From a bacterium (GTDB lineage Bacteria; Patescibacteriota; Gracilibacteria; JAHISY01), in the NCBI GenBank assembly GCA_021779375.1, contig JAJYAT010000001.1:40724-104723 (forward strand): a stretch of DNA of 64,000 nt. The letters are read 5' to 3'. A program made the translations under genes and the position numbers. Position 1 is the stretch's first letter. Each line of letters begins with the position of its first letter. The notes below the pieces were generated by a model. It searched no databases. It saw only the letters and a list, made by a program, of their open reading frames with translations, and was not told where the DNA came from. Positions 15,946 through 52,491 of the stretch are shown in pieces.

Positions 15946-16938
15946 TCAAATCACGCCAGGGATGAAGCGCCAACGCACTTTCTTGGCATAGCGGCGGTAA
16001 TCCGGATCAGCACTCAGGTGTCGCTCTTCCGTCAGCGCGCGCAGAATATAAATCGCGTTCCAGCCGATTAGGGCGAGCAAAGTGCCGAGGCTGAGAAATG
16101 GCAGGAACTCAAACCACCACGCTAAATTTTTGGCGATATAGGCTGGATGTCGTACGAAACGATAAGGTCCGTATGAAACAATTCCGCGATTCGTGAGATT
16201 ACTCGCCTTGAAACCGAGCGCCAGCGTCGCCCAAACATAAATCAAGAAGGCAATCAACCCGGCGATTTTGAGCGAATCGACAAGCCAAACATTTTCGAAG
16301 AGTGTGAAGTTTCTGGTAAGCGGGATGAAATTATCCATGATGGAATTGAAGGGCGGATAGCAGATGAGCGCAACCACCCAGCCCGAAACAAAGGGATCGA
16401 CTGACTTGATACGATTACGAAGAAAACTAAACTCAAAGGTATAAGCGAACGCAAACACGACAGTGTCAATTAAGAAAATTGCCTGATAAATAAAGTCGTA
16501 ACCCCACTGCCAAAAAAATGAGATGAAACTCTGGCTGGGATCAGCCGTACGCCATAGTTCATGTAAATTTTGAAAATGCTGAAAAAAGAAGTTCAGCATC
16601 AGAGGCAAGAAGAAAAATTTGACGAGGTAAGAGAGAGCCGCTGTCCGCGCCGCTGCGCGATTTTCCGGCGAGCGTTTTCGACAAAAAATGAAGTTAAATA
16701 AAACTACTAGCTTGTCGCGTGCGTAATCCGCCTCTGTGCAAAAAAAATGGAAACGCACGAGGTAATAAGGCAAACCAAGCACCAGATAAGCCAGAAACAA
16801 AAAATTAAAAACCGCAATTGTATTGCCATTTAAAAAATTACGAAAGTAGCCGTGGAAGGAATAAATCGCTAAAAGAACCGCAAAAATGAGGAGATTGCCG
16901 AGATAATGCGCGACCGTTCGTTGTAAAGTTTTGAGCAT
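15946..16938 (-). CDS. ICMT/PEMT-family membrane methyltransferase
   Basis: 330 aa, polytopic. The C-terminal signature NRGIVSYGPYRFVRHPAYIAKNLAWWFE is typical of the isoprenylcysteine carboxyl / phospholipid methyltransferase family. Its ATG overlaps the upstream stop (TGATG). Confidence 0.65.
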   Translation of the reverse strand: MLKTLQRTVAHYLGNLLIFAVLLAIYSFHGYFRNFLNGNTIAVFNFLFLAYLVLGLPYYLVRFHFFCTEADYARDKLVVLFNFIFCRKRSPENRAAARTAALSYLVKFFFLPLMLNFFFQHFQNLHELWRTADPSQSFISFFWQWGYDFIYQAIFLIDTVVFAFAYTFEFSFLRNRIKSVDPFVSGWVVALICYPPFNSIMDNFIPLTRNFTLFENVWLVDSLKIAGLIAFLIYVWATLALGFKASNLTNRGIVSYGPYRFVRHPAYIAKNLAWWFEFLPFLSLGTLLALIGWNAIYILRALTEERHLSADPDYRRYAKKVRWRFIPGVI

Positions 16939-19907: not shown

Positions 19908-22877
19908 TTATTCGAGCAAAATCGTGCCGTCATCCACTGGAGGCAAATCTGTTTCTCCATCTGGCTTGACTCCGATTTCAGTCTCGCAAGGCCCGAAAAA
20001 ATCGGCAATTGTTTTCCAACCCGGAATCAAAATCTGAACTTCATTCAGCGGAAGACTGACTTTGTTCGCACCTTTTTCCGGCATTTGACCTTTCAGGACG
20101 AAATTGCGGAAATTGTCGAAAGATTTCTGATCTTTGAAAATCGCTTCGAATTTCGCTTTCGCCTCTGGCGAAGCATTCGCTTTCCCGAGCCATTCGTCGC
20201 GCACATTAGAATATTTACCAAGTGCGTCAGCACGACCAGTGCCAGTCCGAATGTAAGTCAAATAACCCGTGAACAAAGACGCCACCTCAAGCGTCAAGCT
20301 CAGCGGTGAATGCACATTGATCAACTCTTTCCTCGGTGCAGATTGGTTTTCCCAAATCGCCATTTTCGGCTGATGTGCTTTGTCTTTGCTAAAAGTCGGC
20401 GGAATGAAAACAGCATCGCCGATGAAAAGCGGCGATCGCGCAGCGTTGATTTTGTCCTCATCGTAAAGCACCATCTCAATCGCATCTTTCGCAGTGACAC
20501 CAATGAAGTTTCCTGGAACATTATATTTATCGAGAATTTTTTCCAATTTCGGATTACCAAGATCGGCAATCTTGATTTTGTCCAATCCGCCAGAATCATT
20601 TTGGAGTAATCTAGCCAGATAAAATGCGTCCTCTTCTTTGTCCATTTTCTTTTCCAAATCAGCAATATCTTTGCAATCCCAATCGTAAAGCAATTTAGCT
20701 GCTTTAAACATGCGCTCATCTGCACCGCGGTCTGCCCACTTTTTCTGCCAAGTGTTTTTGGCTTCGAGTCTTTTTGCAAACGAATTAATTGTTTTGCCAT
20801 CGCCAGCCGCTGTAATTGTTTTTTCAAGGTCAGCAGCCATGATAGGAAGTGCCTTTTCGTCTAAGTTTTTTTCAACATATTTCGCGAGCGACTCACGCGA
20901 CTGACCCAAAACATCATCGACATTTTCGGCGATAAATTTATGTGGTTTCGTGTCGAGACGTTTGCGGGCGTTGAGATATTCACTCTCGCGCAGTGTCTTG
21001 CCGCGCAAATCGACAATCGCCGGATCTGGAAGATTGTTAAATTCCGAGCCCGGCTTGAACCAATCCATGACGCGAGGTATGAGCGTCCAACCATCCGGCA
21101 CATTCTTGAAATACTGAACTGCGTTGATTGGGACAGCTTTCGGTTTTTCAGGTTGCGGAGCTGGCGCAGGCGCGACGGGCGGCTTCAGCGCTTCTAATTT
21201 TTTAATGACAACCGCCGGATTTTCGCAGTTCGGGATTTCGATCTGCGCGATCTTGTAATTCGCGACTTCATCCGGACTAATCGTGTCTTGTTTCAAATAT
21301 TTTTTAAGAATATTTGCCTTATCCTTTTTGTCAGAAATTTCAAGATATTTGTAAATGTACGTCTCCTTCGGGCGCAGCGTCTGCGGCGCGTCGATGTTAT
21401 TTTCCCAAGTGTCGCCATTCGATTGGTCGATGTACGCTTCGAGTTTGCCACCATGTGCTTTCTGATCCACACGCAGCATGAAAACCTCACCACCACTCAA
21501 AATGTCTTTGACCTCTTGCTTGTGTTCATTCGGCTTGGCACTGAGTTTTTCCGCGCTGGAGTCGGAATACAAAACATTCCACCTCATCCCAAGTCCAACC
21601 TTTTCAGCAAAAAGTTCTTCGACTTTTTTACCGCCCGACAATCCCTGGACCTGATTGTTGAGCGCCATTTCTCGTTCTGGAGAATTACCTTTCGCGACGC
21701 GACCATAGCTCACATCGAGCACTTTGAAAGTCTCGATTAATTCCGCCTTTTTGGCTGGCGACAATTTAGACTCCTTCACCTGTTGTTCAAATTGCCGTGA
21801 GCTGCCGAGACGCAATTTTTGCATCTTCGCTGGGTTGTTCAAATCTTCTGGCTTCAATGCGAATAGTGCCGCGACCTCAGCCGGCACGCCTTTTTTCGTG
21901 CTAGGTTTCGCGCTAAGGTCTACGACGTTTGATTTCACGCCATCGACATAACTCATGGCAACCCAGCCGCCTTTGTCTAATTTTCCCCACCATCGTTTTT
22001 CTCCTTTACCAAATTTACCGGATTTAACTTGGACAATCCTAATTTCCTCGCCGACTGCCACTAAACCGGTTCTCTTACCGTCTTCGCTCAAGACTTTGAG
22101 GGCTTCTTTCGCGCGGAATTTACCTGGCACGAAATTCACCGGCTCATTACTTTCTGCGCCGTAAACTGCCTCGAGATCTCTCTGATATCTCGCTGCGCCA
22201 CCCTCCAATAAATATTTGACTGAAGACGCTCCTGGATTTTTTGGAGCAGCATCGTGAATATCAGACTCTTGAATAGCAGCTTTTGCCGGAGCAGCTTTTT
22301 CAGCTGGCGCGAAAGTAAATCCGTCTTTGATAACTTCAGAAAATGGTCGCGCTGTCGGAATCTTACCTTTCTCATAAAGATTGGCATCGACCTGAAAACC
22401 CGCAGAATTAAAAATTCTTTCTAATTGATCAGGCGTAACTTTTTCGCCCGTAAGTTTGTTGTGAGCCAGCACTAATTTGACCGCACTCTCACTCGCGTGC
22501 ACGAGCATGAAACGCCCTTTCTCAATCTGAACCGCTGTTCCCACTTCTTGATCGTGTTTTTCAATCAAGCCATTGACCATCTCATCCATCTGCGCGTCGG
22601 TCAGTTCGATGTTTTGGGCTTTTTCAATCGCCTCTTTCAATAATTTAATCGCGTCTTCGGATTCTTTTGTCCGCTTCTGGCGCTCGAGAGTTTTCAGTTC
22701 TTGGAGTTTTTCCGCCAAGGATTTTTTTTCCTGCGAATTAATCTTGCCAAGCTCCTTCCCCGTCGCCGAATCTTGCGGCGCATCAAGACGCTTGTTAAAC
22801 GGCAACTCCACTCTGATTAGCCGCGCTTCGTGCAGCGCGCAATCAATCGGCGCGAAGGTCTGGATTTTGTTTTGCAT
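19908..22877 (-). CDS. Lys-rich 989-aa protein of unknown function (no signal peptide, no TM segment)
   Basis: Long uninterrupted ORF. Coiled-coil-like N-terminus (KSLAEKLQELKTLERQKRTKESEDAIKLLKEAIEKAQ). A possible SH3b-like stretch (GEKRWWGKLDKGGWVAMSYV). A Pro-rich linker (KPPVAPAPAPQPEKPK). I recognise no catalytic motif. Confidence 0.7.
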   Translation of the reverse strand: MQNKIQTFAPIDCALHEARLIRVELPFNKRLDAPQDSATGKELGKINSQEKKSLAEKLQELKTLERQKRTKESEDAIKLLKEAIEKAQNIELTDAQMDEMVNGLIEKHDQEVGTAVQIEKGRFMLVHASESAVKLVLAHNKLTGEKVTPDQLERIFNSAGFQVDANLYEKGKIPTARPFSEVIKDGFTFAPAEKAAPAKAAIQESDIHDAAPKNPGASSVKYLLEGGAARYQRDLEAVYGAESNEPVNFVPGKFRAKEALKVLSEDGKRTGLVAVGEEIRIVQVKSGKFGKGEKRWWGKLDKGGWVAMSYVDGVKSNVVDLSAKPSTKKGVPAEVAALFALKPEDLNNPAKMQKLRLGSSRQFEQQVKESKLSPAKKAELIETFKVLDVSYGRVAKGNSPEREMALNNQVQGLSGGKKVEELFAEKVGLGMRWNVLYSDSSAEKLSAKPNEHKQEVKDILSGGEVFMLRVDQKAHGGKLEAYIDQSNGDTWENNIDAPQTLRPKETYIYKYLEISDKKDKANILKKYLKQDTISPDEVANYKIAQIEIPNCENPAVVIKKLEALKPPVAPAPAPQPEKPKAVPINAVQYFKNVPDGWTLIPRVMDWFKPGSEFNNLPDPAIVDLRGKTLRESEYLNARKRLDTKPHKFIAENVDDVLGQSRESLAKYVEKNLDEKALPIMAADLEKTITAAGDGKTINSFAKRLEAKNTWQKKWADRGADERMFKAAKLLYDWDCKDIADLEKKMDKEEDAFYLARLLQNDSGGLDKIKIADLGNPKLEKILDKYNVPGNFIGVTAKDAIEMVLYDEDKINAARSPLFIGDAVFIPPTFSKDKAHQPKMAIWENQSAPRKELINVHSPLSLTLEVASLFTGYLTYIRTGTGRADALGKYSNVRDEWLGKANASPEAKAKFEAIFKDQKSFDNFRNFVLKGQMPEKGANKVSLPLNEVQILIPGWKTIADFFGPCETEIGVKPDGETDLPPVDDGTILLE

Positions 22878-22947
22878 TTTGAGAGAGTTAATTTTTATTT
22901 TTAATTTTAAATCTTTTTATTTTACCATTTTTTATTAAAAAATACAA

Positions 22948-23640
22948 CTAGCGATACAAAAGTCCCTGCACCGCCGCGACGATAATGTACGCGAGCAAAA
23001 CGATGACCAGTCCGGCGATTGAGTAAATAATCATCGTCTTGGCTTTTTGGGCGTCGTTGTCATTGCCCGCCGCAGTGACGAGTCGGAAACCGCCAATCAC
23101 GAGAAAAACGAAAGCCGTCAGACCGACCATTTTGGCTGCCAGATCAATCACCTTATCCATGAAAATCTGCAAATTTCCTGCACGATCTTGGTTATTGTTC
23201 ACATTAAGAATCTTCTTCGTATCGACGCTTTTGAATCTATTAACTCTTTGCTGCAACTCAGTGACTTTTGCTGAGAGCTCGTTTTTAGATTTCGACAGCG
23301 CCGCGATAATCTCTAGAGGATCGGTCTCCCCTGTCTTGGTGTTACCCGTACCGTAAATCCCATCACAAGTCGTCTGTGTCCCGTCAGGACCGATGATACT
23401 GCATCTAAACCACAAATCAGTGGCGAAATCACAAGCACCAGAACAATCTGAAAAATTATTCAGAATGGTTGTGGCTGCCTGGAGTTCCGCAGTTTTCGCC
23501 GCTAGCGCAGCATTGCAGTTCACCTCGGTCGCACACTCATCCACATCAGCCGTGGCAGCAGATGCAACACCGCCGAAAAGCAGCGCGACGACTGGCAGCA
23601 CGAGTAAAGCCGTGAAGAATGTTTGGATTTTTGTTTTCAA
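22948..23640 (-). CDS. T4SS-type pilin (TrbC/VirB2-like, T4SS_pilin-type C-terminal hairpin) with a ~150-aa Cys-containing N-terminal extension
   Basis: TTG start. Signal peptide MKTKIQTFFTALLVLPVVALLFGGVASA. The C-terminal 70 aa, VIDLAAKMVGLTAFVFLVIGGFRLVTAAGNDNDAQKAKTMIIYSIAGLVIVLLAYIIVAAVQGLL, form the two-helix hairpin with the G..(K/R)...S/A.G....AK motif typical of CPR/Firmicute T4SS pilins. Confidence 0.7.
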   Translation of the reverse strand: MKTKIQTFFTALLVLPVVALLFGGVASAATADVDECATEVNCNAALAAKTAELQAATTILNNFSDCSGACDFATDLWFRCSIIGPDGTQTTCDGIYGTGNTKTGETDPLEIIAALSKSKNELSAKVTELQQRVNRFKSVDTKKILNVNNNQDRAGNLQIFMDKVIDLAAKMVGLTAFVFLVIGGFRLVTAAGNDNDAQKAKTMIIYSIAGLVIVLLAYIIVAAVQGLLYR

Positions 23641-29785: not shown

Positions 29786-30565
29786 TTAAATCCTAAACAA
29801 CTCCTCAGCATTTTGGCTCGTCTGTACAGCGATTTCTTCAAGTGATAAGTTTTTGAGTTCAGCAATTTTTTGCGCGACCTCGATGACGAAGGCTGGTTCG
29901 CAGCGCTCGCCGCGAAATTTTTGCGGCGCGAGAAAAGGCGCGTCTGTCTCGATGAGTATTTTTTCGAGCGGGGTTTTGCGCGCGACTTCTTGGACATTCA
30001 CCGCATTCGCGAAAGTGACGATGCCGGTCAGTCCGATAAGGAATCCCCTCGCGAGAACCTGCTCAGCGAAATCCCAATCGCTACCGAAACAATGAAACAC
30101 GCCGCGCACTTGGAACTTGTCGAGCGAAGCGAAAATCTCAGCATCCGCCGCGCGGGAGTGAATGATGACCGGCCTGTTTAATCTTTGCGCGAGCGCGAGC
30201 TGCCGCTCGAAAGCTGCAATTTGAACCTTGGCGGATTTTTGGTTCTTGAAAAAATCGAGTCCAATCTCTCCGATTGCGACAACTTTGGAATTTTGAGCCA
30301 ATTGCTCAAGCGCAGCGAAATTATCAGCCGACAACTTCTCAGCTTCGGATGGATGAAACCCGACCGCCGCAAACAAGTTAACCCCTGAGTTAACTCGAGG
30401 GTTAACGCTCTCGGTCAGCGCGACCGCCTTTCGCGAAGTCGACAAATCCACGCCTGGATTAATAATTTTTGTGACACCGACCTCAGCTGCTCGTGCGAGA
30501 ACGGCGCCGAAATCCTTTTCGAAATTGGTGAAATCGAGATGGCAGTGGGAGTCGACTAAATGCAA
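29786..30565 (-). CDS. tatD: TatD-family metal-dependent hydrolase/DNase
   Basis: 259 aa. Contains LVDSHCHLDF, AVGFHP, IGEIGLD, PVIIHSR and ETDAPFL. Confidence 0.9.
   Translation of the reverse strand: MHLVDSHCHLDFTNFEKDFGAVLARAAEVGVTKIINPGVDLSTSRKAVALTESVNPRVNSGVNLFAAVGFHPSEAEKLSADNFAALEQLAQNSKVVAIGEIGLDFFKNQKSAKVQIAAFERQLALAQRLNRPVIIHSRAADAEIFASLDKFQVRGVFHCFGSDWDFAEQVLARGFLIGLTGIVTFANAVNVQEVARKTPLEKILIETDAPFLAPQKFRGERCEPAFVIEVAQKIAELKNLSLEEIAVQTSQNAEELFRI
30377..30406. repeat. 30-nt near-palindrome GTTAACCCCTGAGTTAACTCGAGGGTTAAC inside tatD (three GTTAAC sites)
   Basis: It encodes VNPRVNSGVN, an apparent 10-codon insertion just before the conserved AAVGFHP block. Confidence 0.8.
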
Positions 30566-30589
30566 AATTGAAAATTATAAAATATACCA

Positions 30590-30976
30590 CTAACTCCCCT
30601 CCCTCAAGGGAGGGGTCGGGGGAGGGTGTCCTGATACACAAACCTCCATAATTTTTTCGAGAACTCCATCTAGATTTTCAAAAACTTCATTATTCCAAAA
30701 GCGTAAAACTTGAAAACCATGCTGGTTAAACCATTTGTCTCTCAACAAGTCTTTTTTTGATCCAGCATGCTGGCTACCATCCAGCTCGACGACAACTCGT
30801 TTTTCGAAACAAACAAAATCAGCGATGAAGTTTCCGATTGGTTGTTGTCGGCGAAATTTTAGATTTTGAAGATTTTTATTGCGTAAGTTTGACCAGAGTA
30901 ATTGCTCGACATCCGAAGAATTCCTTCTTAATTTTCTAGCAAATTGCGTTAATCCGGGATTCATTAAGTTAGTCAT
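30590..30976 (-). CDS. DUF559 (Vsr-like fold) endonuclease-domain protein
   Basis: 128 aa. LWSNLRNKNLQNLKFRRQQPIGNFIADFVCFEKRVVVELDGSQH...VLRFWNNEV is the DUF559 pattern. The tail GHPPPTPPLREGS is encoded by the flanking G/C-rich repeat. Confidence 0.8.
   Translation of the reverse strand: MTNLMNPGLTQFARKLRRNSSDVEQLLWSNLRNKNLQNLKFRRQQPIGNFIADFVCFEKRVVVELDGSQHAGSKKDLLRDKWFNQHGFQVLRFWNNEVFENLDGVLEKIMEVCVSGHPPPTPPLREGS
30594..30628. repeat. Left inverted repeat of the DUF559 cassette (contains hairpin CCCCTCCC-TCAA-GGGAGGGG)
   Basis: ctcccctccctcaagggaggggtcgggggagggtg. Its reverse complement aligns with 30991-31021 at roughly 28 of 33 positions. Confidence 0.75.
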
Positions 30977-30990
30977 CTATCTAATATTAT

Positions 30991-31021
30991 CTCCCTCCCC
31001 AACCCCTCCCGCTGGGAGGGG
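30991..31021. repeat. Right inverted repeat of the DUF559 cassette (contains hairpin CCCCTCCC-GCT-GGGAGGGG)
   Basis: ctccctccccaacccctcccgctgggagggg lies 15 nt upstream of the DUF559 ATG and 12 nt downstream of the mutM stop. Confidence 0.75.
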
Positions 31022-31960: not shown

Positions 31961-32045
31961 GGGCTAAATTTTAGGTTCAAAAGTCCAAAGTAGAAAGTGA
32001 GAAAATTGCTAAAATGCACAGGCTTAATTCTTCGCCCTTAATTTT

Positions 32046-32771
32046 TTGTCTTTTCAAATTATCCCAGCCATCGACTTAATCCATGGGCGCTGCGTGCGAC
32101 TTTACAAAGGCTCATTTGAGCAGAAGACAGAATACGAAATCTCCCCTGCCGAGCAGGCGCGAGTTTTTGAAAATGAAGGCGGCGACCGCATTCACGTCGT
32201 CGATCTCGACGGCGCGCGCAAAGGCGAACCGATTAATTTGCGAACAATCGCGAAAATTTGTGCGTCGGTCAAAATCCCCATCGAAGTCGGCGGCGGCGTG
32301 CGTAAAATCGAAGATGCGGAGAAGCTTTTCGCCATCGGGGTGGACCGCGTGATTCTCGGAACGCTCGCCGTCGAGCAGCCCGAACTTTTGGCAGAATTTT
32401 TGCAAAAGTTCGGTAGCGAAAAAGTCGTGGTCGGACTCGACGCACGCAAAGACGGCACGAAGCTAGCGACACGCGGCTGGGAAAGCGCGACCGAAATTGA
32501 CGTGCTCGACTTCGCGGAAAAGCTCGTGGAAATCGGCGTTTCGCGCATTATTTATACGGACATCGCCCGCGACGGCACACTGACTTTCCCGAATTTTGAT
32601 ATGAACGAACGACTCGTGAAAACGACGAATTTGAAAGTCATCGCGAGTGGCGGCGTCACCGATCTCGCCCATTTGGAAATTTTGCGCAAGATTGGTTGCG
32701 AAGGCGCGATTCTCGGCAAAGCGCTTTATGAAAATAAAATCTCGCTCGAAGAAATTAAACAATCCTTATAA
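32046..32771 (+). CDS. hisA: HisA-type (beta/alpha)8 ProFAR isomerase
   Basis: TTG start. Contains IIPAIDLIHGRCVRLYKGSF, VVDLDGA, EVGGGVR, GLDARKDG...TRGW, IIYTDIARDGTL and IASGGV. Confidence 0.8.
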   Translation: MSFQIIPAIDLIHGRCVRLYKGSFEQKTEYEISPAEQARVFENEGGDRIHVVDLDGARKGEPINLRTIAKICASVKIPIEVGGGVRKIEDAEKLFAIGVDRVILGTLAVEQPELLAEFLQKFGSEKVVVGLDARKDGTKLATRGWESATEIDVLDFAEKLVEIGVSRIIYTDIARDGTLTFPNFDMNERLVKTTNLKVIASGGVTDLAHLEILRKIGCEGAILGKALYENKISLEEIKQSL

Positions 32772-32808
32772 TCCTTAAAGCTCTTTATTTTCTTTATAAT
32801 CTTTCCTG

Positions 32809-36939: not shown

Positions 36940-37119
36940 CCCTGCCAAACGAGGAGAGACTTTTCTGAGAGCAACAATTAGTTTAAAATCTTTTCGGTTT
37001 GGAAATTGGCACCAAGCTGACAGATTCGAAAGTGTCCTCCGCCGAGCGGGGGAAATCCGAGTGGAACCTCCCGGTGTAAATCGGGACTCGGAACGAGTAA
37101 TCGTTTCGAGTTGTTTTTT
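36940..37119 (+). promoter_or_regulatory. T-box riboswitch leader controlling glyQS (candidate specifier GGC-A at 37008-37011)
   Basis: Canonical antiterminator: helix A1 CCGAG (37057-61) / CTCGG (37087-91); 7-nt bulge UGGAACC (37062-68); helix A2 TCCCG (37069-73) / CGGGA (37082-86); 8-nt loop. The bulge's UGGA is complementary to the U-CCA end of tRNA-Gly (discriminator U). A mutually exclusive terminator uses 37086-37096. Stem I upstream was not resolved by eye. Confidence 0.75.
37086..37119 (+). terminator. Intrinsic terminator of the T-box leader
   Basis: ACTCGGAACGA - GTAA - TCGTTTCGAGT (11 bp including one G-U) followed by TGTTTTTT. The 5' arm overlaps the antiterminator 3' strands. 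Confidence 0.8.
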
Positions 37120-37120
37120 A

Positions 37121-37165
37121 AACTTAATCCTTATTCCTTACTAACTTAATTCTTAATCCTCTCCC
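37121..37165 (+). repeat. Heptad-periodic CTTA leader array abutting the glyQS start
   Basis: aacttaatccttattccttactaacttaattcttaatcctctccc|ATG. CTTA occurs at 37123, 37130, 37137, 37145 and 37152 (spacing 7,7,8,7). 34 of 35 nt are identical to 43244-43278. Confidence 0.85.
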
Positions 37166-38563
37166 ATGTCTGCCACCTCTCTCGATCAAATCGTTTCGCT
37201 CTGCAAACAGCGCGGCTTCATCTTCCCCGGCTCAGAAATCTACGGCGGACTGGCGAATACCTGGGATTACGGTCCAGTCGGCGTCGAGCTAAAAAATAAT
37301 GTGAAAAAGTTTTGGTGGGATTTTTGGGTGACGAATCGTGATGATGTCGTCGGCGTCGACGCTGCGATCTTGATGAATCCGCGAGTCTGGGAAGCGAGCG
37401 GTCATGTCTCGAATTTCTCCGATCCGCTCGTCGACTGCAAAGCCTGCAAAAAAAGACACCGCGGCGACAAGCTACTTGAAGAAAAACTCGGCGTCGAAGC
37501 GATCGCGGGCATCGCGCTCGTCGATGTCACGCCCCGACTTTTGGCGGAAAAAATCGCCTGCCCGGACTGCGGCAAATGCGACTGGGCGGAGGCGAAACAA
37601 TTCAACCTCATGTTCCGCACTTCGCAGGGCGTGACGGAAGATTCGGAAAGAGAGATTTACATGCGCCCGGAGACAGCACAGGGAATTTTTGTGAATTTCA
37701 AAAATGTGCTGAATTCGAGCCGCAAGCGCCTGCCCTTCGGCATCGCACAGATCGGGAAAGCTTTTCGCAATGAAATCACGCCGGGCAACTTCACTTTCCG
37801 CACGCGCGAATTCGAACAAATGGAGGTCGAGTATTTTTGCGCTGAAAAAGATTGGGAGAAAATTTATCCGGAACTCGAGCAAGCGAGCTGGGATTTTTTC
37901 GCGAAACTAGGAATCAATGGGGGAAATTTGCGCTGGCGCAAACACGACGATGCCGAGCTTTCACATTATTCGCGGCTGACGAAAGACATCGAATACAAAT
38001 TCCCCTGGGGCTGGGGCGAACTCCAGGGACTCGCCTACCGTACGGATTTTGATTTGAAACAGCATGCGAAATTTTCCGGCGAGTCTATGGACTACCTCGA
38101 TCCCGAGACGAATGCGAAATTCGTACCGCACTGCATCGAACCAAGTTTCGGCTGCGACCGCACAGTGCTGACCGTCTTGCTCGACGCCTACACTGAGGAC
38201 GAAGTGAATGGCGAGAAACGCGTCGTGATGAAATTCGATCCCAAGATCGCACCAATCAAAGTCGCGGTTTTGCCACTCTCGAAAAAGGAAAATCTGACGA
38301 AAAAAGCGCGGGAAATTTACGACCTGCTGAGAAAAGAATTCCGCACGGAATACGACGAGACACAATCCATCGGCAAACGCTACCGCCGCCAAGATGAAAT
38401 CGGCACGCCACTCTGCGTGACAGTCGACTTCGGCACCATCGGCGAAGATGACGGACAATCGAAAAAAGATTGCGTCACCGTCCGCGACCGCGATTCGCTC
38501 GAACAAGTCGAGGTTCCAATCGAAAAATTGGCTGCAGTTGTCAAAGAAAAATTAGGCAATTAA
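37166..38563 (+). CDS. glyQS: Glycine--tRNA ligase (alpha2 dimeric GlyQS type)
   Basis: 465 aa. Contains [26 protein letters not shown], class II motifs ([21 protein letters not shown]) and the anticodon-binding C-terminus. Confidence 0.9.
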
Positions 38564-38576
38564 ACTCCCGCAACAA

Positions 38577-38613
38577 AACTTAGTTCTTAATTCTTACAAA
38601 CTTAATCCTTCCC
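38577..38613 (+). repeat. Heptad-periodic CTTA leader array abutting the ndk start
   Basis: aacttagttcttaattcttacaaacttaatccttccc, then aa|ATG. CTTA occurs at 38579, 38586, 38593 and 38601, with CTTC at 38608, the same 7,7,8,7 spacing. Confidence 0.8.
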
Positions 38614-38615
38614 AA

Positions 38616-39080
38616 ATGCAAACCACTCTCGTCATTTTCAAACCAGACTGCGTCCTGCGCGGACTCGTCGGTGAGATTCTCGCCCGCTTCGAGAAACGCG
38701 GACTCAAGATTGTCGCGATTAAAAAAATGAAACTCTCGACTGAGCTTTTGACTGAACATTACGGACATTTGAAAGACAAGCCTTTTTTCCCGGGAATCGT
38801 CGCCGCGATGCAACGCACGCCAGTAATTGTTTTAGCTTTGCGTGGCGTCAACGCCGCCGAGGTCGCCCGCAAAATGGCAGGTGCGACGAATGCCCGCGAC
38901 GCGGAAGTCGGTACGATTCGCGGTGATCTCGCAGTCTCGATTCAAAATAATCTCGTCCACATTTCCGATTCGCCGGAGTCCGCGGAGATTGAGGTAAAAA
39001 GATTTTTCACAGCGGAAGAATTGGTCGACCCAGCCGACGAAGAACTCGGAGTGCTTTATTCGAAAGATGAATTAAATTAA
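38616..39080 (+). CDS. ndk: Nucleoside-diphosphate kinase
   Basis: Contains TLVIFKPDCVLRGLVGEILARFEKRGLKIVAIK, GATNA and NLVHISDS (active-site His). Confidence 0.9.
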   Translation: MQTTLVIFKPDCVLRGLVGEILARFEKRGLKIVAIKKMKLSTELLTEHYGHLKDKPFFPGIVAAMQRTPVIVLALRGVNAAEVARKMAGATNARDAEVGTIRGDLAVSIQNNLVHISDSPESAEIEVKRFFTAEELVDPADEELGVLYSKDELN

Positions 39081-39105
39081 GATTGGAAAAACTGAAGTTA
39101 AAAAA

Positions 39106-39137
39106 CTTTTTTCTTAATCCTTAATTCTTAATTCTTT
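39106..39137 (+). repeat. Heptad-periodic CTT(A/T) leader array running into the TTG start of the sugar transferase gene
   Basis: CTTT/CTTA occurs at 39106, 39113, 39120, 39127 and 39134, a perfect 7-nt period (cttttttcttaatccttaattcttaattcttTG). Confidence 0.8.
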
Positions 39138-40608
39138 GGTGGTGAAACGAGCCGAAATTTTTTTTAACGCACTCCGCCTGCCGACAGATTTTGTCGCAAC
39201 GGCGAGTGCGTTTTTCGTCGCGCGCGCCATCCGCCTCGACCCAACTTTCCTAGCGAATTTTCAATCACCCGCCAATACGAATCTGGATTTCGGCGACTTC
39301 ACGAAATTGGTCGCACTCGCGAGCGGCGGTCTGATTTTGATTTTCGCCGTCAACGGAATGTACCGAATGCGCTCGCGGAATTTGGGACGCGATTTCCGCC
39401 AAATAATTTTCCTGGTCGCAGCCTGGCTACTAATTTTGACGGCTTATTTTTTCTTCCGCCGCGAATTCTTCTTCTCACGCCTCGCGCTCGTCTACGTCGG
39501 AATTTTGAGCGTTTTCTTTATTTTGGCGGGACGAATTTTGGTGCGTTTTTTCCAAAGAATTTTTTGGCAAGCCGGCATCGGCGTGACGAAAATTTTGGTA
39601 ATCGGGACGAATCCGAATTCGCTCGTGCTGGGTAATTTCCTCGCAGGCAATCCACGCTTCCGCTTCGCTGGCTTCGTCGAAGTTGCCTGCCCTCGACTCC
39701 GATCGGGGGGAAAACTGCCGCACGCTTTTCCGAAAAATCCGATTGGCGAAATCGCCGATTTGGAAAAAATCGTGCGCCGACGCGAGATTGGCGAAATTAT
39801 TTTGGCGAGTCGGAAATTGTCGCACGAAAAAATGCGCGAACTGCTCGCGTTTTGTCGCGTCAATCATATCGGTTTTTCTTTCGTCCCCGATCTACTGGAA
39901 GTCCCACAGAAAAATGTCGAAGTCGATGAGGTGGCAGGCATTCCCCTGATTTCGCTGCGACCGACACCGCTCAACGGCTGGGGTCGCGTCGGCAAAAGAA
40001 TTTTTGACTTTTTTGGCAGTCTGTTTTTTTTAATTTTGACCGCGCCGATTTGGCTCGTGACTGCCATCGCCATCAAGCTCGATTCGCGCGGTCCGGTTTT
40101 TTTCGTCCGGAAAGATGACGGTTCGAAAGTCGTCCGCATCGGCAAACACGGTCGGGCTTTTGGTTTCGTGAAATTCCGCTCGATGCGCGCGAAGTCAGAC
40201 TCGCTGCGCTACTCGCGCGAATTGGCAGCGCAAAATACGCGCCGGAATTCTCCGCTCGTGAAAATCGAAAACGATCCCCGCATCACGCGCGTCGGGAAAT
40301 TTATCCGGAAATATTCCATCGACGAATTACCGCAGCTGCTAAATGTTTTGACCGGCAAAATGAGTCTCGTCGGACCGCGCCCGCACCTCCCCGAGGAAGT
40401 CGCGAAATACCGCGCGCACCATCGCCGCGTCCTCGGCATCAAGCCGGGCATCACCGGACTCGGACAAATCTCGGGGCGCAGCGACCTCGACTTCGAGGAG
40501 GAAGTCGCACTCGATACTTGGTACATCGAGCACTGGAGCATTTGGTTGGATTTGAAAATCCTCTGGAAAACAATCGGCGTCGTGCTTTTCCCGAAGCACC
40601 GCGAGTAG
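39136..40608 (+). CDS. Polyprenyl-phosphate glycosyl-1-phosphate transferase (WbaP/exopolysaccharide sugar transferase family)
   Basis: TTG start. N-terminal TM block. C-terminal bacterial sugar-transferase domain KRIFDFFGSLFFLILTAPIWLVTAIAIKLDSRGPVFF...DELPQLLNVLTGKMSLVGPRP. Confidence 0.85.
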   Translation: MVVKRAEIFFNALRLPTDFVATASAFFVARAIRLDPTFLANFQSPANTNLDFGDFTKLVALASGGLILIFAVNGMYRMRSRNLGRDFRQIIFLVAAWLLILTAYFFFRREFFFSRLALVYVGILSVFFILAGRILVRFFQRIFWQAGIGVTKILVIGTNPNSLVLGNFLAGNPRFRFAGFVEVACPRLRSGGKLPHAFPKNPIGEIADLEKIVRRREIGEIILASRKLSHEKMRELLAFCRVNHIGFSFVPDLLEVPQKNVEVDEVAGIPLISLRPTPLNGWGRVGKRIFDFFGSLFFLILTAPIWLVTAIAIKLDSRGPVFFVRKDDGSKVVRIGKHGRAFGFVKFRSMRAKSDSLRYSRELAAQNTRRNSPLVKIENDPRITRVGKFIRKYSIDELPQLLNVLTGKMSLVGPRPHLPEEVAKYRAHHRRVLGIKPGITGLGQISGRSDLDFEEEVALDTWYIEHWSIWLDLKILWKTIGVVLFPKHRE

Positions 40609-40658
40609 CCGAAAAAAACAAAGCGCGCTAAGCTCTCGCCAACCTACCCAATCCGACG

Positions 40659-41870
40659 ATGGCCTTCGTCTCTCAATTCATCCGAACCGAAATCACTGAC
40701 AGCGCCGACCAAACCCTGGGCAAATTGGTCGACTTTATCGCTGAATTAAACGAGGACAAATTCCCGCCGATTGTAGCCTTGGTTTTGCGCGAAGCGAAAA
40801 CCAAAACGCTGCGTCTCATTCCGACCGAATACATCGCCAATCTCGATCGCGGCGAAATCGACCTCACGACACTCGCTAGCAAACTCAAGTCGTATGCGCC
40901 GCACAAAAATGATTTGTGGCTCTACCGTGATGTCCTGGACAAACAAATCGTCGATCTCGAAGGCACGCGTGTCGTCCGCGTGAATGATCTGCGTTTCAGT
41001 ATGGTGAATGGTCGCCTGCGTGTCCTCGGCATCGATGTCAGTACGCGCGGCGTTTTGCGCCGAGTCGGTCTGGACCGCCTGAAACTTTTTAATTTTTTGA
41101 AGCCGCGTTTTATCGACTGGGAAAAAGTCCGCATCGTCGGCAACGCACTGCAACTTTCGACGCTCGCCGCGGATCTCGTGGAATTACATCCGGCTGATTT
41201 GGCTAACATCGTCGAAGATCTCAATCCTGACCAGTCTGAGAAAATCATGCAATCGCTCGACAGTGAAACCGTCGCCAAAGTTTTCGAAGAATTGGAACCG
41301 CATTTCAAACACAGCGCGCTCAAGAATCTCGATCAGAGAAAACTTTCGACCGTATTATCGCAAGTGCCGACCGATGAATTGGTGGATTATCTCAAATCAC
41401 TCACGGTCCGCGAGCGCCGCAAGATTCTCACGAAAATCACTTCCAGCAAGAAGAAAACCGTACAGCAATTTTTGGGCTATGAGAATGACACAGCCGGCGG
41501 ATTGCTCAGCACGGAATTCGTGAAAGGCAGCCGCGATTGGGATGTCAGTGAGGCTCGCGAGCATGTCCGCAAAGTTTCTGAGGCGCACCGGTCGATTAAT
41601 TTTATTTATCTCACTGATCGGCAGGATCATTTCGTCGGGACAGTTTCGCTACGCGCGCTCCTACTCGCCGATTCGAAAATGAAACTGCGCCGCATCATGA
41701 AACGTATCCGCGGACACCAAATCGTGCGCGTAGAGGCCTCGCTCAAAGACATCGCGCGCATCATGACGAAGTATAATCTTTCTTCGGTTGCGGTCGTGGA
41801 TGCCGAGCAAAAGATGCTGGGGGTGATTACCGTCGATGACTTGATGCGACAGCTCGTCCCCCACGCTTAA
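40659..41870 (+). CDS. Soluble MgtE-N + CBS-pair protein (PRC-barrel-like N-terminus); lacks the MgtE membrane domain
   Basis: 403 aa with no hydrophobic helices. MgtE_N-like region LHPADLANIVEDLNPDQSEKIMQSLDSETVAKVFEELEP...LVDYLKSL. CBS pair (FVGTVSLRALLL..., MLGVITVDDLMRQL). It ends where the MgtE TM domain would begin. Confidence 0.7.
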   Translation: MAFVSQFIRTEITDSADQTLGKLVDFIAELNEDKFPPIVALVLREAKTKTLRLIPTEYIANLDRGEIDLTTLASKLKSYAPHKNDLWLYRDVLDKQIVDLEGTRVVRVNDLRFSMVNGRLRVLGIDVSTRGVLRRVGLDRLKLFNFLKPRFIDWEKVRIVGNALQLSTLAADLVELHPADLANIVEDLNPDQSEKIMQSLDSETVAKVFEELEPHFKHSALKNLDQRKLSTVLSQVPTDELVDYLKSLTVRERRKILTKITSSKKKTVQQFLGYENDTAGGLLSTEFVKGSRDWDVSEAREHVRKVSEAHRSINFIYLTDRQDHFVGTVSLRALLLADSKMKLRRIMKRIRGHQIVRVEASLKDIARIMTKYNLSSVAVVDAEQKMLGVITVDDLMRQLVPHA

Positions 41871-41901
41871 ATTTTTTAATTGAATCAATCAATCCGAAGC
41901 T

Positions 41902-43179
41902 ATGTTGGAAAGATGGAAAAATCTTCGTGCGCGGTTGATGATTTTTTTGGCGATCGCCGGACCGGGACTCATCACCGCCTCGGTCGACAATGACTCGGGC
42001 GGCATCGCGACCTACGCCCTAGCCGGTGCGCGCTTTGGCTATGGTCTGCTCTGGACGCTCATCCCGATCACGCTACTCCTAATCTTCACGCTCGATCTTT
42101 CGACGAAACTCGGCATCACCACACGCACCGGACTCGCCGCACTCATCCGCGAAAAATTTCGCATACGACTCACGCTGCCACTTCTACTGCTCGTGCTGGT
42201 CGCGAATCTCGGCACGACCACGAGTGAATTCGCCGGCATTTCGTCTTCGTTCAAAATCTTTTTCGCGGGAACTTTCGCCAGTCATCCGCTGCTCGAAACT
42301 ATCTTTCAGTCTGGAATTATCTTGCTTTGCGCGGGCTTGATTTGGTTTTTTATTTTGAAAGGAACTTATAAGCGCATTGAAAAAACCTTCATCGTCTTGG
42401 TGCTTTTTTACGTCACTTACATTATCTCGGCGATTCTCGCGAAGCCGGACTGGAGTCTCGCGCTCAAGAGTTTGGTCATCCCGACTTTCGAATTCAACAC
42501 GGGCTTCCTACTCACGACAGTCGGCGTCATCGGCACGACCATCACGCCGTGGATGTATTTTTTCCATAATTCCACACTCGTCGAAAAAGGCGTGGAAAAA
42601 GAAAACCTGCGCAACAGCCGCATTGATGCGCTACTCGGCAGCATCATGACTGATGTGATTTCTTTCTTCGTCATCGTTGCAGTCGCCAGCACGATTTTCG
42701 TGAATCATTTGCCGGTCGCGACCGTGGCGGACATAGGACAATCACTAGTACCTCTAGCTGGAAAATACGCCGGGTTTTTGTTTGCCTTCGGCTTACTCAA
42801 CGCTTCACTCTTCGGCGCCGCCGTCTTGCCCCTCTCCACCGCCTACACCATCTGCGAAGCACTCGGCTGGGAGACAGGCATCGACAAAGGTTTTCGCACC
42901 GCGCCGCAGTTTTACGCGATCTTCACCGGCATGATTGCCATCAGCGCTGGCATCATTCTCACGCCGAAGATACCGCTCTTGCTCATCATGTTCACGTCGC
43001 AAATCGCCAATGGTTTGCTGCTGCCGTTTTTCTTGGTCTACCTCATGCTCCTCGCCGAAGATGAAAAACTGATGGGTCGCTACCGCTTGAAAGGATTCCT
43101 GCGCTACTTCGGCTGGATCGCCACGACAATTTTAATCGTGCTCAACCTCATGACTGCCGCAGCGCCTTTGTTCCAATAA
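41902..43179 (+). CDS. NRAMP/SLC11-family transporter with non-canonical metal-site residues (NRMT-like)
   Basis: 425 aa, 11-12 TM. TM1 GPGLITASVDNDSGGIATY aligns without gaps to the canonical GPAF...DPGN.AT (Asp kept, Asn to Gly). TM6 GTTITPWMYFFHNS aligns to the canonical GA(T/V)(I/V)MPH (Ala to Thr, Met to Thr, His to Trp). Confidence 0.75.
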   Translation: MLERWKNLRARLMIFLAIAGPGLITASVDNDSGGIATYALAGARFGYGLLWTLIPITLLLIFTLDLSTKLGITTRTGLAALIREKFRIRLTLPLLLLVLVANLGTTTSEFAGISSSFKIFFAGTFASHPLLETIFQSGIILLCAGLIWFFILKGTYKRIEKTFIVLVLFYVTYIISAILAKPDWSLALKSLVIPTFEFNTGFLLTTVGVIGTTITPWMYFFHNSTLVEKGVEKENLRNSRIDALLGSIMTDVISFFVIVAVASTIFVNHLPVATVADIGQSLVPLAGKYAGFLFAFGLLNASLFGAAVLPLSTAYTICEALGWETGIDKGFRTAPQFYAIFTGMIAISAGIILTPKIPLLLIMFTSQIANGLLLPFFLVYLMLLAEDEKLMGRYRLKGFLRYFGWIATTILIVLNLMTAAAPLFQ

Positions 43180-43243
43180 TTTAAAACTGAAAAATAAGAG
43201 TGGAATCTGAAAACATTTAGAACAACTAGAACAAATCCAAACC

Positions 43244-43278
43244 AACTTAGTCCTTATTCCTTACTAACTTAATTCTTA
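43244..43278 (+). repeat. Heptad-periodic CTTA leader array abutting the yhhQ-like start
   Basis: aacttagtccttattccttactaacttaattctta, then cca|ATG. CTTA occurs at 43246, 43253, 43260, 43268 and 43275. Near-identical to the glyQS array. Confidence 0.85.
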
Positions 43279-43281
43279 CCA

Positions 43282-46747: not shown

Positions 46748-47557
46748 ATGCGACCAGTTCCTGCCAAATCCGAAGCCACACGCAAACGACGACCGGATCT
46801 AAATGCACGCATGATTTACTGTCAAAGTGCGCGCGCGATTCTCGCCCAACTTCCCAACGAACACTCTTGGGTTGCACGCAAGAAAATAGCACTAGAGGAA
46901 TTTTTCGGAATAGACCCCATCAACGCTTGGGTAGCCCAGGAAAGACAAAAACTTTTCGACGCTTTAAAAAAATATCCTGGCAAGCATTACAATGAGGCAG
47001 GCGCGAAACTCGAAGCCCTTTTCCTCGAATTCGAGCGTGATATCCAAGCAGTCCTACCACATCTAAAACAAATACCTAAAAAAACTGAGCTCGACTTTTC
47101 GTCTGAGCAAATCCAAACAGACTTAGCCGCGGCGCGGATTGACCCTTATTACGCGAGAAAATTAGGATCTGAAACGGAAGATTCTTTTGAAATCCCAACC
47201 CAAGACGCCGAGCAACGTTTTGATGTAAAAATATTTTTAAGCGAGAACAAGATCGTTATTCAGGGAAAAAGAGCGCATGAAGCAATGCAATGGCTGGAAA
47301 GAATCACCGAACCTGAACCAGCGCCTGGCATGACTATCGTAGGTACCATAATCAAAATTACAGATTTCGGATTTTTTGTTGATTTCGGACCAAGAAGAGA
47401 TGGGCTAGTTCACAATTCCGAAATCACTTTGGGTTCTAAAAATCCGCGTCCTTTGCAAGAAGGAGAAACAATCCAAGCTGAAATCCTAGAAATTAACAGG
47501 AGTGGCCACATTCGGCTAGGAAATGCCCTTCGTCTAGATACGAATCTAAACCTGTAG
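46748..47557 (+). CDS. Protein with C-terminal S1 RNA-binding domain
   Basis: 269 aa. MTIVGTIIKITDFGFFVDFGPRRDGLVHNSEI...GETIQAEILEINRSGHIRL is an S1/OB pattern. The N-terminal 190 aa are unassigned. Confidence 0.6.
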   Translation: MRPVPAKSEATRKRRPDLNARMIYCQSARAILAQLPNEHSWVARKKIALEEFFGIDPINAWVAQERQKLFDALKKYPGKHYNEAGAKLEALFLEFERDIQAVLPHLKQIPKKTELDFSSEQIQTDLAAARIDPYYARKLGSETEDSFEIPTQDAEQRFDVKIFLSENKIVIQGKRAHEAMQWLERITEPEPAPGMTIVGTIIKITDFGFFVDFGPRRDGLVHNSEITLGSKNPRPLQEGETIQAEILEINRSGHIRLGNALRLDTNLNL

Positions 47558-51084: not shown

Positions 51085-51143
51085 TTCTGCTAAAATCAGC
51101 GCACAAAACATGGTTCAAATAAGTGTTCCGTGTTTCATGTTCT

Positions 51144-52454
51144 ATGTTCCATGAGATTAAAATCGCGGTAATTCAATTCCCCGGCTCGAACTGCGAGCTC
51201 GAGACGGCGCGTGCCGTCGTGCGCAACGGTATGGTCGCCGAGCATTTTCGCTGGAACGAGAAGAAGAGTTTGAAAAGTTTTGCTGGTGCAATTTTAGTCG
51301 GCGGATTCAGCTACGAAGATCGCGGGCGCAGCGGCTTGATTGCTTCGAAAGATCCGCTGCTGAAAGAAGTTTTTGCGCTGGCGAAGCGCGGTGGTGTGGT
51401 GCTTGGAATTTGCAACGGCGCCCAAGTCTTGGTCGAGACCGGGCTCGTGCCGAATTTCGAATTTGGGAAATCTGTGCTCGCACTCACCCACAATCGCCGT
51501 GTAAAAAATGGCGCAGTCGTCGGTGAAAATTTTTACAACGATTGGATTTTTGTCCGCCCGCAAAAAAATCGCGCCAATGCTTTCAATCAATTCGAGGAAG
51601 AAATTTTGCGCATTCCGGTCGCACACGCCGAGGGACGCTTTTTTTCGGAAGACGCTGATTTGATTGGCAAGATTGTGGAAGAAAATTTGAACGCTTTTGT
51701 CTACTGCGATGCGGAGGGAAATATCCAACCGGAATTCCCGACGAATCCGAATGGCTCAATTCTGAATCTCGCCGGCGTGACGAATGCGACGGGCAACGTC
51801 ATGGCGCTGATGCCACACCCCGAGCGCACTGAAATTGGCGATCCGATTTTCCAGTCGATGCGCCGCTGGATCTTGGGCGAAGTCGAGAAACCGGAAGTGC
51901 ACAAAATTAAATTTGCCGCGCCAGTTTCGAAAATTTTGGCTGCGCCAAAAACTGACGTCGAACTTTTCGTGAAACTGAAAATCACTGACAACGAGGCGCT
52001 CTCAGTCGGTCGCGCCGCTCAACTGGATTTAGAGAAATTCAGATGGTTTGGGTTTCAATTCACAGATTCGTTAACCCACGAGATATCTCGTGGGTTAACT
52101 CCAATAGTAAAAACCAATTTAGAAAAAATCATCCGCAGCGGCAGTCTATTAAATGCTGAAAAGGAAGAGGTTTTTGTGAAATTCGGCGACAAGGTGTGGA
52201 AATTTTCCAAAGACCACGGACTCGTCGCCGTGCAATTCGTGCTACCGAAAAATCGGATTCTCGCCCGCGAAAAAGAAGCCAGTCTCGACGAATCGCGCGA
52301 ACAAACTTTGAACCACCTGCTTGGCAAATCCGTCGTCCGAAATTTCACCAGCGGAGTTTTGTGGAGCACGGAAGACGCAAAAGAGAAATTTGAAAAAGCG
52401 ATCGTTGGAAATTTCTTTCATCACCCTGCCTCCCATTATTTGAGCAAGATTTAA
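51144..52454 (+). CDS. purQ: FGAM synthase glutamine amidotransferase subunit PurQ with a ~190-aa C-terminal extension (possibly tandem PurS-like)
   Basis: IKIAVIQFPGSNCELETARAV, GICNGAQVL and LMPHPER (class I GATase triad). The alternative start is GTG 51123. The extension (VELFVKLKITDNEALSVGRAAQ... and ...FEKAIVGNFFHHPASHY) is only loosely PurS-like. Confidence 0.75.
   Translation: MFHEIKIAVIQFPGSNCELETARAVVRNGMVAEHFRWNEKKSLKSFAGAILVGGFSYEDRGRSGLIASKDPLLKEVFALAKRGGVVLGICNGAQVLVETGLVPNFEFGKSVLALTHNRRVKNGAVVGENFYNDWIFVRPQKNRANAFNQFEEEILRIPVAHAEGRFFSEDADLIGKIVEENLNAFVYCDAEGNIQPEFPTNPNGSILNLAGVTNATGNVMALMPHPERTEIGDPIFQSMRRWILGEVEKPEVHKIKFAAPVSKILAAPKTDVELFVKLKITDNEALSVGRAAQLDLEKFRWFGFQFTDSLTHEISRGLTPIVKTNLEKIIRSGSLLNAEKEEVFVKFGDKVWKFSKDHGLVAVQFVLPKNRILAREKEASLDESREQTLNHLLGKSVVRNFTSGVLWSTEDAKEKFEKAIVGNFFHHPASHYLSKI
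52070..52099. repeat. Perfect 30-nt palindrome GTTAACCCACGAGATATCTCGTGGGTTAAC inside the purQ extension
   Basis: Read directly. In frame, it encodes (S)LTHEISRGLT. It has the same GTTAACCCAC termini as the mutM copies. Confidence 0.9.
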
Positions 52455-52491
52455 AACTAGCAACTACCAACTATTAACTAAAAACTTCGTG
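52455..52491 (+). repeat. Five in-phase heptads AACTNNN running into the GTG start of glmS
   Basis: aactagc aactacc aactatt aactaaa aacttcG TG. The period is exactly 7 from 52455 to 52489. Confidence 0.85.

Follow-up and report, generated by a model that had tools for sequence, protein, structure and literature searches.

We describe here a set of short repeat arrays, built on the tetramer CTTA, that stand directly before the start codons of glyQS, ndk, a sugar transferase gene and yhhQ (Vut_1) in a 64,000-nucleotide stretch of bacterial DNA (contig JAJYAT010000001.1 of assembly GCA_021779375.1, forward-strand positions 40,724 to 104,723), referred to below as the window. The uncultured host belongs to the Patescibacteria (Candidate Phyla Radiation, CPR), near the Peregrinibacteria and Gracilibacteria. 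Proteins identical to those of the window occur in the metagenome-assembled genomes GCA_021833845.1 and GCA_027424775.1 and also in mine-drainage and groundwater metagenomes, the label on their protein-cluster mates is Patescibacteria, and the closest named relatives of the glycyl-tRNA synthetase (GlyRS), at 66-69% identity, come from Ca. Gracilibacteria, Peribacteraceae and Peregrinibacteria. Contigs of syntenic relatives, given L numbers below, were obtained via exact-protein look-ups and a metagenome scan, so that the clade sample amounts to ~170 kb around one syntenic region; gene starts were set by open reading frame (ORF) logic and by the gene calls of the sequence collections.

All four arrays are on the + strand, and direct reading of the sequence agrees with the coordinates and spacings at which a preliminary description of this DNA had placed them. 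The glyQS leader array (37120-37165) consists of AAACTTA, ATCCTTA, TTCCTTA, CTAACTTA and ATTCTTA, a 36-nt cassette, followed by ATCCTCTCCC and the ATG at 37166; CTTA recurs at 37123, 37130, 37137, 37145 and 37152, that is at spacings of 7, 7, 8 and 7 nt, within a G-free run of 54 nt (37114-37167). The yhhQ array (43243-43281), which forms the final 38 nt of a 102-nt spacer and is followed by CCA and the ATG at 43282, has the same spacings (CTTA at 43246, 43253, 43260, 43268 and 43275) and, as had been noticed, is identical to the glyQS cassette at 34 of 35 positions at a distance of 6 kb. At ndk (38576-38615) the array begins 13 nt after the glyQS stop codon and reads AAACTTA, GTTCTTA, ATTCTTA, CAAACTTA, ATCCTTC and CCAA up to the ATG at 38616, with CTTA at 38579, 38586, 38593 and 38601 (spacing 7, 7, 8) and then CCTT. 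The sugar transferase array (39103-39141) has a perfect period of 7, namely CTTTTTT, CTTAATC, CTTAATT, CTTAATT and CTTTGGTG, with CTTT at 39106, CTTA at 39113, 39120 and 39127, and CTTT again at 39134; comparison with relatives leads us to prefer GTG 39142, rather than TTG 39136, as the probable start of this gene.

Two weaker leaders lie further upstream, also on the + strand. The 9-nt-periodic series before ruvA (32761-32805; AATCCTTAT, AATCCTTAA, AGCTCTTTA, TTTTCTTTA, TAATCTTTC) is present as first read, with CTTA, CTTA, CTTT, CTTT and CTTT from 32765 to 32801, but as an array it is weak (72% matches) and should be seen as a relative of the others. A weak CTTA leader that had been overlooked precedes a hisA-like gene (32023-32045; CTTAATTCTTCGCCCTTAATTTT) immediately 3' of a -10 box (tGCTAAAAT), a position that makes it 5' untranslated region (UTR).

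Three of the window arrays have a 36-nt architecture in common, AAACTTA-RTYCTTA-WTYCTTA-CWAACTTA-ATYCTT. When 14 arrays of the window and its relatives are pooled, the 7-nt units are ATCCTTA (10), ATTCTTA (9), GTCCTTA (6) and TTCCTTA (4), with GTTCTTA (3), CTCCTTA (2) and CCTCTTA (1) as rarer forms, and the 8-nt units are CTAACTTA (7), CAAACTTA (3) and CTAGCTTA (1); six of the seven positions of the heptad are constrained, to [AGT]T[CT]CTTA. Tandem Repeats Finder describes the window arrays as 4-5 imperfect units with 75-89% matches, and reports period 7 at 37123-37160 and at 39111-39136. The distance from array end to start codon is 3-12 nt. In the window the full 7,7,8,7 pattern is matched three times where chance predicts 0.01; if three units are required and one mismatch is allowed, the count is eight and the expectation 0.45. 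Every match is on the + strand, ahead of + strand genes and between 32.0 and 43.3 kb, and no cluster of at least three CTTA is found on the - strand of the window. A G-free run is by itself a weak statistic, since the + strand of the window holds 11 such runs of at least 33 nt.

Being without G, the arrays hold no AUG, GUG or UUG; in the sugar transferase array such codons stand only at the 3' edge, beside the start. They are also predicted to be almost free of structure. From -40 to +30 the minimum free energy (MFE) is -1.6 kcal/mol for array genes, whereas genes without an array reach -9.0 and random 70-mers -14.8; the unpaired probability over the same interval is 0.79, 0.54 and 0.48, respectively. 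The idea that period 7 serves to provide stops in three frames was dropped, as stops in all frames occur in only 3 of 5 spacers. The repeats confuse short-read assembly of the host genome: Logan contigs are broken at the arrays or join one array to another, for instance 39130 to 37123 and 38604 to 43246.

The glyQS array is preceded by a T-box-like leader (36984-37119, + strand) made up of a -10 box (TAAAAT, 36984-36989), a hairpin whose loop carries GGC, AAUCCGAGUGGAACC, an antiterminator (CCGAG, a UGGAACC bulge, UCCCG...CGGGA, CUCGG) and an intrinsic terminator, which a terminator scan places at 37085-37119. The antiterminator and terminator helices have CUCGG in common and so are mutually exclusive, and the UGGA of the bulge matches the UCCA end of tRNA-Gly. 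The specifier GGC is invariant in the hairpin loop and AAUCCGAGUGGAACC is invariant across seven lineages; 11 of the 30 predicted pairs of the leader show compensatory changes among these lineages, as does the terminator. The same leader occurs in L127 (9567-9699), L151, L213, L214, L215 and L134. The Rfam T-box model RF00230 has no window match at E<=10, and in L145, a more distant relative, the glyQS leader scores 44.6 bits against it (E 1e-6; gathering score 93). The leader is a T-box-like variant that falls short of a full Stem I, and we name it so because its specifier sits in the terminal loop of a very short Stem I. Most relatives have a variable small ORF between the switch and glyQS (for instance a 74-aa DUF4405 ORF in L127); in the window the array begins directly after the terminator U-run and runs to the ATG. 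Lying between terminator and ATG, it is therefore part of the mRNA, a transcribed 5' UTR that could act solely in the read-through transcript. The other arrays occupy spacers between co-directional genes. Rfam has no match for the arrays themselves.

Start signals of the lineage

The preliminary description had noted that few starts carry a Shine-Dalgarno (SD) tract and that the arrays are not SD sites, and both points hold: SD-like tetramers precede just 3 of 47 starts in the window, which means that the host makes scarcely any use of SD, and G is missing from the arrays. Between -20 and -1, G makes up 11% of positions in the window (9.5% in the relatives) versus 24% genome-wide. What stands before the starts is a different signal. 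TTAA begins at -15 to -13 in 15 of 47 window genes and 31 of 97 genes of the relatives, and the hexamer YTAAYY begins at -17 to -11 in 27 of 100 genes, or 21 of 94 when array genes are left aside, where the upstream background predicts 2.8% (p ~1e-13).

This motif is the very substance of the arrays. The junction of one unit with the next (CTTA/ATYC) spells TTAATY, and CTAACT is a further YTAAYY, so that an array amounts to a head-to-tail series of the pre-start motif that this genome uses in general. On this point the preliminary description, which could match the element to no known motif, has to be amended. In each array the final TTAAT begins between -12 and -16, the usual distance of the motif.

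Conservation and turnover among relatives

The arrays had been proposed to be a dedicated leader element, with the reservation that they might prove to be missing from orthologous leaders. They are tied to start codons and kept at orthologous leaders, being present in six related lineages. The closest relatives, L127 and L128 (97% GlyRS identity), have an array at all four genes with unit numbers that differ from those of the window (9 versus 5 at glyQS, 10 versus 5 at yhhQ). The L127 glyQS array includes three perfect CTTAGTC units, its ndk array has turned into ATTTAAT x5, and Tandem Repeats Finder reports for L127 several period-7 arrays plus a period-22 super-repeat. The glyQS cassette is kept in L136, L151, L214, L215 and L134, over a range of GlyRS identity to the window from 90% down to 69% (best-segment); L215 retains arrays at ndk and the sugar transferase too. 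No array was found in Peribacter-like loci (~66% identity).

Comparison of the window with L214, L215 and L134 (76-77% identity by global codon alignment) shows how closely the cassette has been held. Its 36 nt are 89-92% identical, as compared to 84-85% for codon positions 1+2 of glyQS and 46-49% for position 3, so that the cassette is under sequence constraint. A hidden Markov model of the cassette finds 16 sites in the window and relatives, and for 13 of these a called start follows 3-12 nt further on, on the same strand. However long the spacer (up to 216 nt), the array is found at its start-codon end and never next to the upstream stop.

One site of turnover lies between tatD and fpg. In the window it holds a DUF559 (Vsr-like endonuclease) gene (30565-31010) with GC-rich CCCCTCCC/GGGAGGGG hairpins on either side; this gene is absent in L214 and L215, and L215 has there a hairpin and an antisense CTTA cassette. 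As its content differs across relatives, the site is an insertion hot spot.

Proposed translation-initiation leaders and their alternatives

The arrays are real, non-random and conserved, and our best reading is that they are leaders for non-SD translation initiation which take the form of a heptanucleotide repeat. More specifically, we give a probability of roughly 0.55 to the proposal that they act in cis as tandem non-SD ribosome-binding motifs, a landing pad for the 30S subunit whose copy number is tuned by slippage. Among the roles put forward earlier, the translation enhancer fits best; a mobile promoter cassette does not, as the arrays have no promoter features and stand at intra-operon junctions too.

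The mechanism might run as follows. Ribosomes of this lineage make no use of GGAGG, and about a quarter of the genes instead have UUAAYY/YUAAYY about 14 nt upstream in a G-poor stretch. In the arrays this motif recurs with a step of 7 nt, or of 8 nt where the unit is CWAACTTA, and with the last copy at the normal distance, so the 33-54 nt of unfoldable, start-codon-free mRNA before the AUG could serve as several adjacent docking sites. The 30S subunits would bind the pad, probably through protein bS1 and a general affinity for single strands, and would then settle on the first start codon, much as at a ribosome standby site or with an S1-dependent enhancer. Genes within operons, or genes that follow a strong hairpin as glyQS follows its terminator, would be the ones to profit from such a pad, and replication slippage, by altering the number of units, may tune expression. 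Candidates for what recognises UUAAYY are bS1, pairing with a remodelled 16S tail and a dedicated protein. In most CPR bacteria a bS1 with 3-4 domains is retained (PMC9297842).

Several observations count against the landing-pad proposal. The array genes (glyQS, ndk, the sugar transferase, yhhQ and ruvA) are not obviously highly expressed, and the gene for EF-G is without an array. Metatranscriptomes of the same study yielded only conserved EF-G fragments from other organisms and none from the host. The glyQS array is reduced to a remnant in L213 and there is none at glyQS in L129-L133; three cassettes of L215 are orphans that abut no called gene, one of them antisense to the fpg-tatD pair at the hot spot described above; and heptad arrays with unrelated units are present in the clade. 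Paralogous cassettes are ~81% alike, and the similarity of the orthologous ones could be due in part to a shared repeat grammar. Finally, no multi-domain bS1 gene (rpsA) was found in the window. The window does encode a 269-aa protein with one C-terminal S1 domain (46748-47557), hence not a multi-domain bS1.

The design combines features that are known separately, that is SD-less initiation, standby sites and repeat-built, G-poor enhancers. In SD-less Bacteroidetes such as Flavobacterium johnsoniae, initiation is tuned by weak structure, by certain key bases upstream and by a scarcity of AUG (PMC6847099), and in Bacteroidia the 16S tail is sequestered by bS21 (PMC7797042). The arrays share with the non-SD regions of the Bacteroidetes (PMC6847099, PMC7797042) the genome-wide lack of SD, the G-poor and unstructured starts, the depletion of extra start codons and position-specific upstream bases, in the present case A at about -11/-10. 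They differ in that a specific hexamer, YTAAYY, forms the signal at about -14 and is repeated in some genes to give a conserved cassette of 36 nt; for Bacteroidetes no comparable tandem reiteration of a start motif is described. The 16S tails of the relatives are, moreover, mutated rather than sequestered by bS21, a protein that is often missing in Peregrinibacteria (PMC9297842).

Unstructured RNA tails act as ribosome standby sites in the MS2 coat and tisB systems (PMC5934652, PMC6690012). In common with standby sites and S1-dependent leaders, the arrays place a single-stranded stretch of transcript beside the start, and standby systems capture the 30S subunit independently of SD. The omega leader of tobacco mosaic virus is G-poor and made of short direct repeats (ACAAUUAC, CAA), and the epsilon element of T7 gene 10 is UUAACUUUA, which resembles the CUAACUUAAU part of the cassette. 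Those are single cases from a phage, a virus or E. coli that stand beside or replace an SD in SD-using hosts, whereas here the repeat unit is the host's general start motif, kept across a bacterial clade, and S1 binding is putative. With the SD itself the arrays have in common their position just upstream of the start and the fixed distance of the last motif copy (-12 to -16), but they lack a purine-rich core.

The arrays bear on how ribosomes find starts without SD pairing, which is an open question in Bacteroidota, Cyanobacteria and many CPR lineages. The clade provides a remarkably explicit signal, a hexamer at fixed distance, together with a natural dose series of 1 to ~10 tandem copies at orthologous genes. 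For gene calling in CPR genomes, models of starts and ribosome-binding sites should use YTAAYY at about -14, and one should bear in mind that arrays break assemblies.

Alternatively, the arrays might be a near-neutral heptanucleotide microsatellite, seeded by slippage on the pre-start motif, growing and shrinking, and tolerated because a leader without G does no harm; the single proximal motif would then account for all of their function. We consider this unlikely. The variable unit numbers of close relatives speak for it, as do the perfect CTTAGTC units and the altered ndk array of L127, the orphan cassettes of L215 and the loss of arrays in some relatives. Irrespective of the unit, tandem repeats in the clade also have period 7 far more often than any other (16 such arrays in 172 kb, where local shuffles give 0.2), and CTTANNN repeats unlinked to starts are common in many phyla. 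Such heptads are known elsewhere as simple sequence repeats (SSRs): 7-bp ATCTTTC repeats upstream of hmw1A and hmw2A of Haemophilus influenzae grade expression, and cyanobacteria have heptamers of the short tandemly repeated repetitive (STRR) type. The arrays resemble these in having head-to-tail 7-nt units in 5' regions with a copy number that varies among close strains, and the unit ATTCTTA is similar in composition to ATCTTTC. Unlike contingency SSRs, however, they are short (4-5 units), imperfect, old and of a fixed five-unit design, and they form no long perfect switching tracts. It speaks against near-neutrality that the five-unit architecture, including its 8-nt fourth unit, has persisted while synonymous sites came near saturation; the imperfect units of the window arrays likewise mark them as old and not as recent slips, and the arrays are anchored always at the start-codon end of the spacer.

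A second alternative keeps the logic of SD pairing but changes its letters. It seems quite improbable that SD and anti-SD have been replaced by UUAAYY (UAAUCC in the arrays) and a remodelled 16S tail, with the arrays as tandem alternative SDs, and we think it decidedly improbable that the pairing takes the particular form of UUAAYY/UAAUCC with a tail such as GGAUUA/GGUUAA beside helix 45. No 16S gene was found in the window or in ~220 fetched loci, save a partial copy in the unrelated L193. Published tails of Peregrinibacteria are mutated and lack CCUCC, being GAACACTTCCTTA in Peribacter and GAACATTCCCTTA or GATTACCTCTTTT in others (PMC10783764), and the often missing bS21 is the very protein that sequesters the tail in Bacteroidia (PMC9297842, PMC7797042). 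The motif is position-specific in the manner of an SD, and a GG partner that pairs by G-C or G-U would tolerate its Y-Y degeneracy. Were the preceding G retained in the tail of GW2011_GWA2_44_7, GATTACCTCTTTT, this tail would contain GGAUUA, the exact complement of UAAUCC. This G does not appear in the printed table and is one that we assume from the canonical GGAUCA tail. Against the pairing, Peribacter is classed as SD-scarce, with only 7% SD even when scored against its own tail (PMC10783764); pairing beside helix 45 would be expected nearer to the AUG than -14; and 4-6 mostly A-U pairs are weak. If the host's 16S tail were nevertheless complementary to the motif, the interest of the arrays would rise sharply.

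The resemblance of the units to the 16S tail is in fact to its sense strand and not to its complement, as the preliminary description had remarked: the published Peribacter tail, though not the host's own, has TTCCTTA as its final 7 nt. Because of this identity, we speculate that the leader might mimic a Peribacter-type tail (UUCCUUA-3') and dock into the protein pocket of the tail on the 30S platform.

Alternatively, the arrays could be a platform for a multimeric or multi-domain RNA-binding protein that reads UYCUUA every 7 nt and co-regulates the gene cluster. Cold-shock/OB-fold domains span ~7 nt each, and TRAP-like proteins offer another model; the fixed register, the constraint at six of seven unit positions, the high conservation at sequence level and the placement of the same cassette before unrelated genes within 11 kb would all suit such a protein. 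We hold this to be highly improbable. No candidate protein has been identified, the genes share no obvious physiology, arrays of other units occur in the same position, and the genome-wide start motif explains the unit more simply.

A role at the level of DNA, as a promoter, UP-like element, iteron-like site or mobile cassette, appears very improbable indeed. The near-identity of the distant glyQS and yhhQ copies, the orphan copies at the L215 insertion hot spot, the breaking and cross-joining of assemblies at arrays and the 22-nt super-repeat of L127 (22 bp spans ~2 helical turns) could be taken in its favour. Promoters of this clade are, however, very clear (consensus TTTTGc-N17-tGCTAAAAT), and the promoter scan placed no promoter-like site within any array; the arrays have no sigma-70 -35/-10 pair at 16-18 nt. 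At glyQS a promoter role is disfavoured further because a promoter behind the T-box terminator would defeat the switch. The arrays have no terminal inverted repeats, target duplications or nearby transposase, and they are not palindromes of the repetitive extragenic palindromic (REP) or miniature inverted-repeat transposable element (MITE) type but G-free direct repeats with an MFE near 0; their strict sense orientation and their distance to the start fit use as RNA. That they are Rho utilisation (rut) sites enforcing polarity at operon junctions is scarcely credible, for although they are G-free, unstructured and 20-30% C, arrays of 33-54 nt are shorter than typical rut sites and are fixed against start codons.

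Other heptad repeats and minor observations

Heptads of other units also occur at starts in the clade, and a mutational component is therefore likely. Two in the window had escaped the preliminary description. The glmS leader (52452-52488, + strand) reads AACTAGC, AACTACC, AACTATT, AACTAAA and AACTTC, is almost G-free and adjoins GTG 52489. At the start of a purQ-like amidotransferase gene (51123-51153, + strand) RTGTTYC is repeated four times, so that each of the three frames receives a start codon (GTG/ATG), with GTG 51123 and ATG 51144 as the candidates in frame. At ruvA, L129 has heptads of GAACYAA and L213 of TGTTCCC/GGAACAG. The UGUUCC heptads of purQ and of ruvA in L213 were considered as complements of a GGAACA tail, and this was rejected as they are not enriched before other genes. 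The CPR relative L164, which does use SD, has the heptad AGGAAUU three times in tandem in its glyQS spacer (3617-3659); the reverse complement of this unit, AATTCCT, is close to the window units. Since L164 thus repeats its own ribosome-binding motif at period 7, slippage on the pre-start motif contributes.

Outside the clade, a variable-gap scan found CTTANNN heptamer repeats in many phyla, with about half of the matches listed from Bacteroidota and the host not among them. Among the matches listed, 29 of 146 lie near ORF starts in sense and 19 of 146 in antisense, compared to 26% for random positions. The candidate of a CTTA leader array widespread in SD-poor phyla was accordingly rejected, as generic repeats are no nearer to starts than random positions, and the link of array and start is specific to the host lineage. 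A scan of viral contigs (IMG/VR) gave 11 CTTAANN arrays in phage-like contigs (L216-L226) with no clear tie to the clade. In phage-like contigs and Bacteroidales, CTTAANN arrays with the 7,7,8,7 spacing occur, sometimes directly before an ATG (L220, L007, L026), and the phage-like and Bacteroidota arrays show no overall enrichment at starts.

Three further repeats of the window may be mentioned. A heptad/14-mer, CAACTACCAGCTAC x2.5, lies at 8787-8842 in the coding linker between the UPF0004 and Radical_SAM domains of a MiaB-like radical-SAM protein. The 63-nt spacer at 22888-22950, which is A/T-rich and G-free on the + strand and contains period-7 TTAATTT repeats, is the - strand leader of a 989-aa gene product without a Pfam match (19908-22877). 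Tandem repeats of 27 nt and 60 nt at 18484-18725 lie inside a 911-aa ORF (16938-19673, - strand) and apparently encode a repeated acidic stretch.

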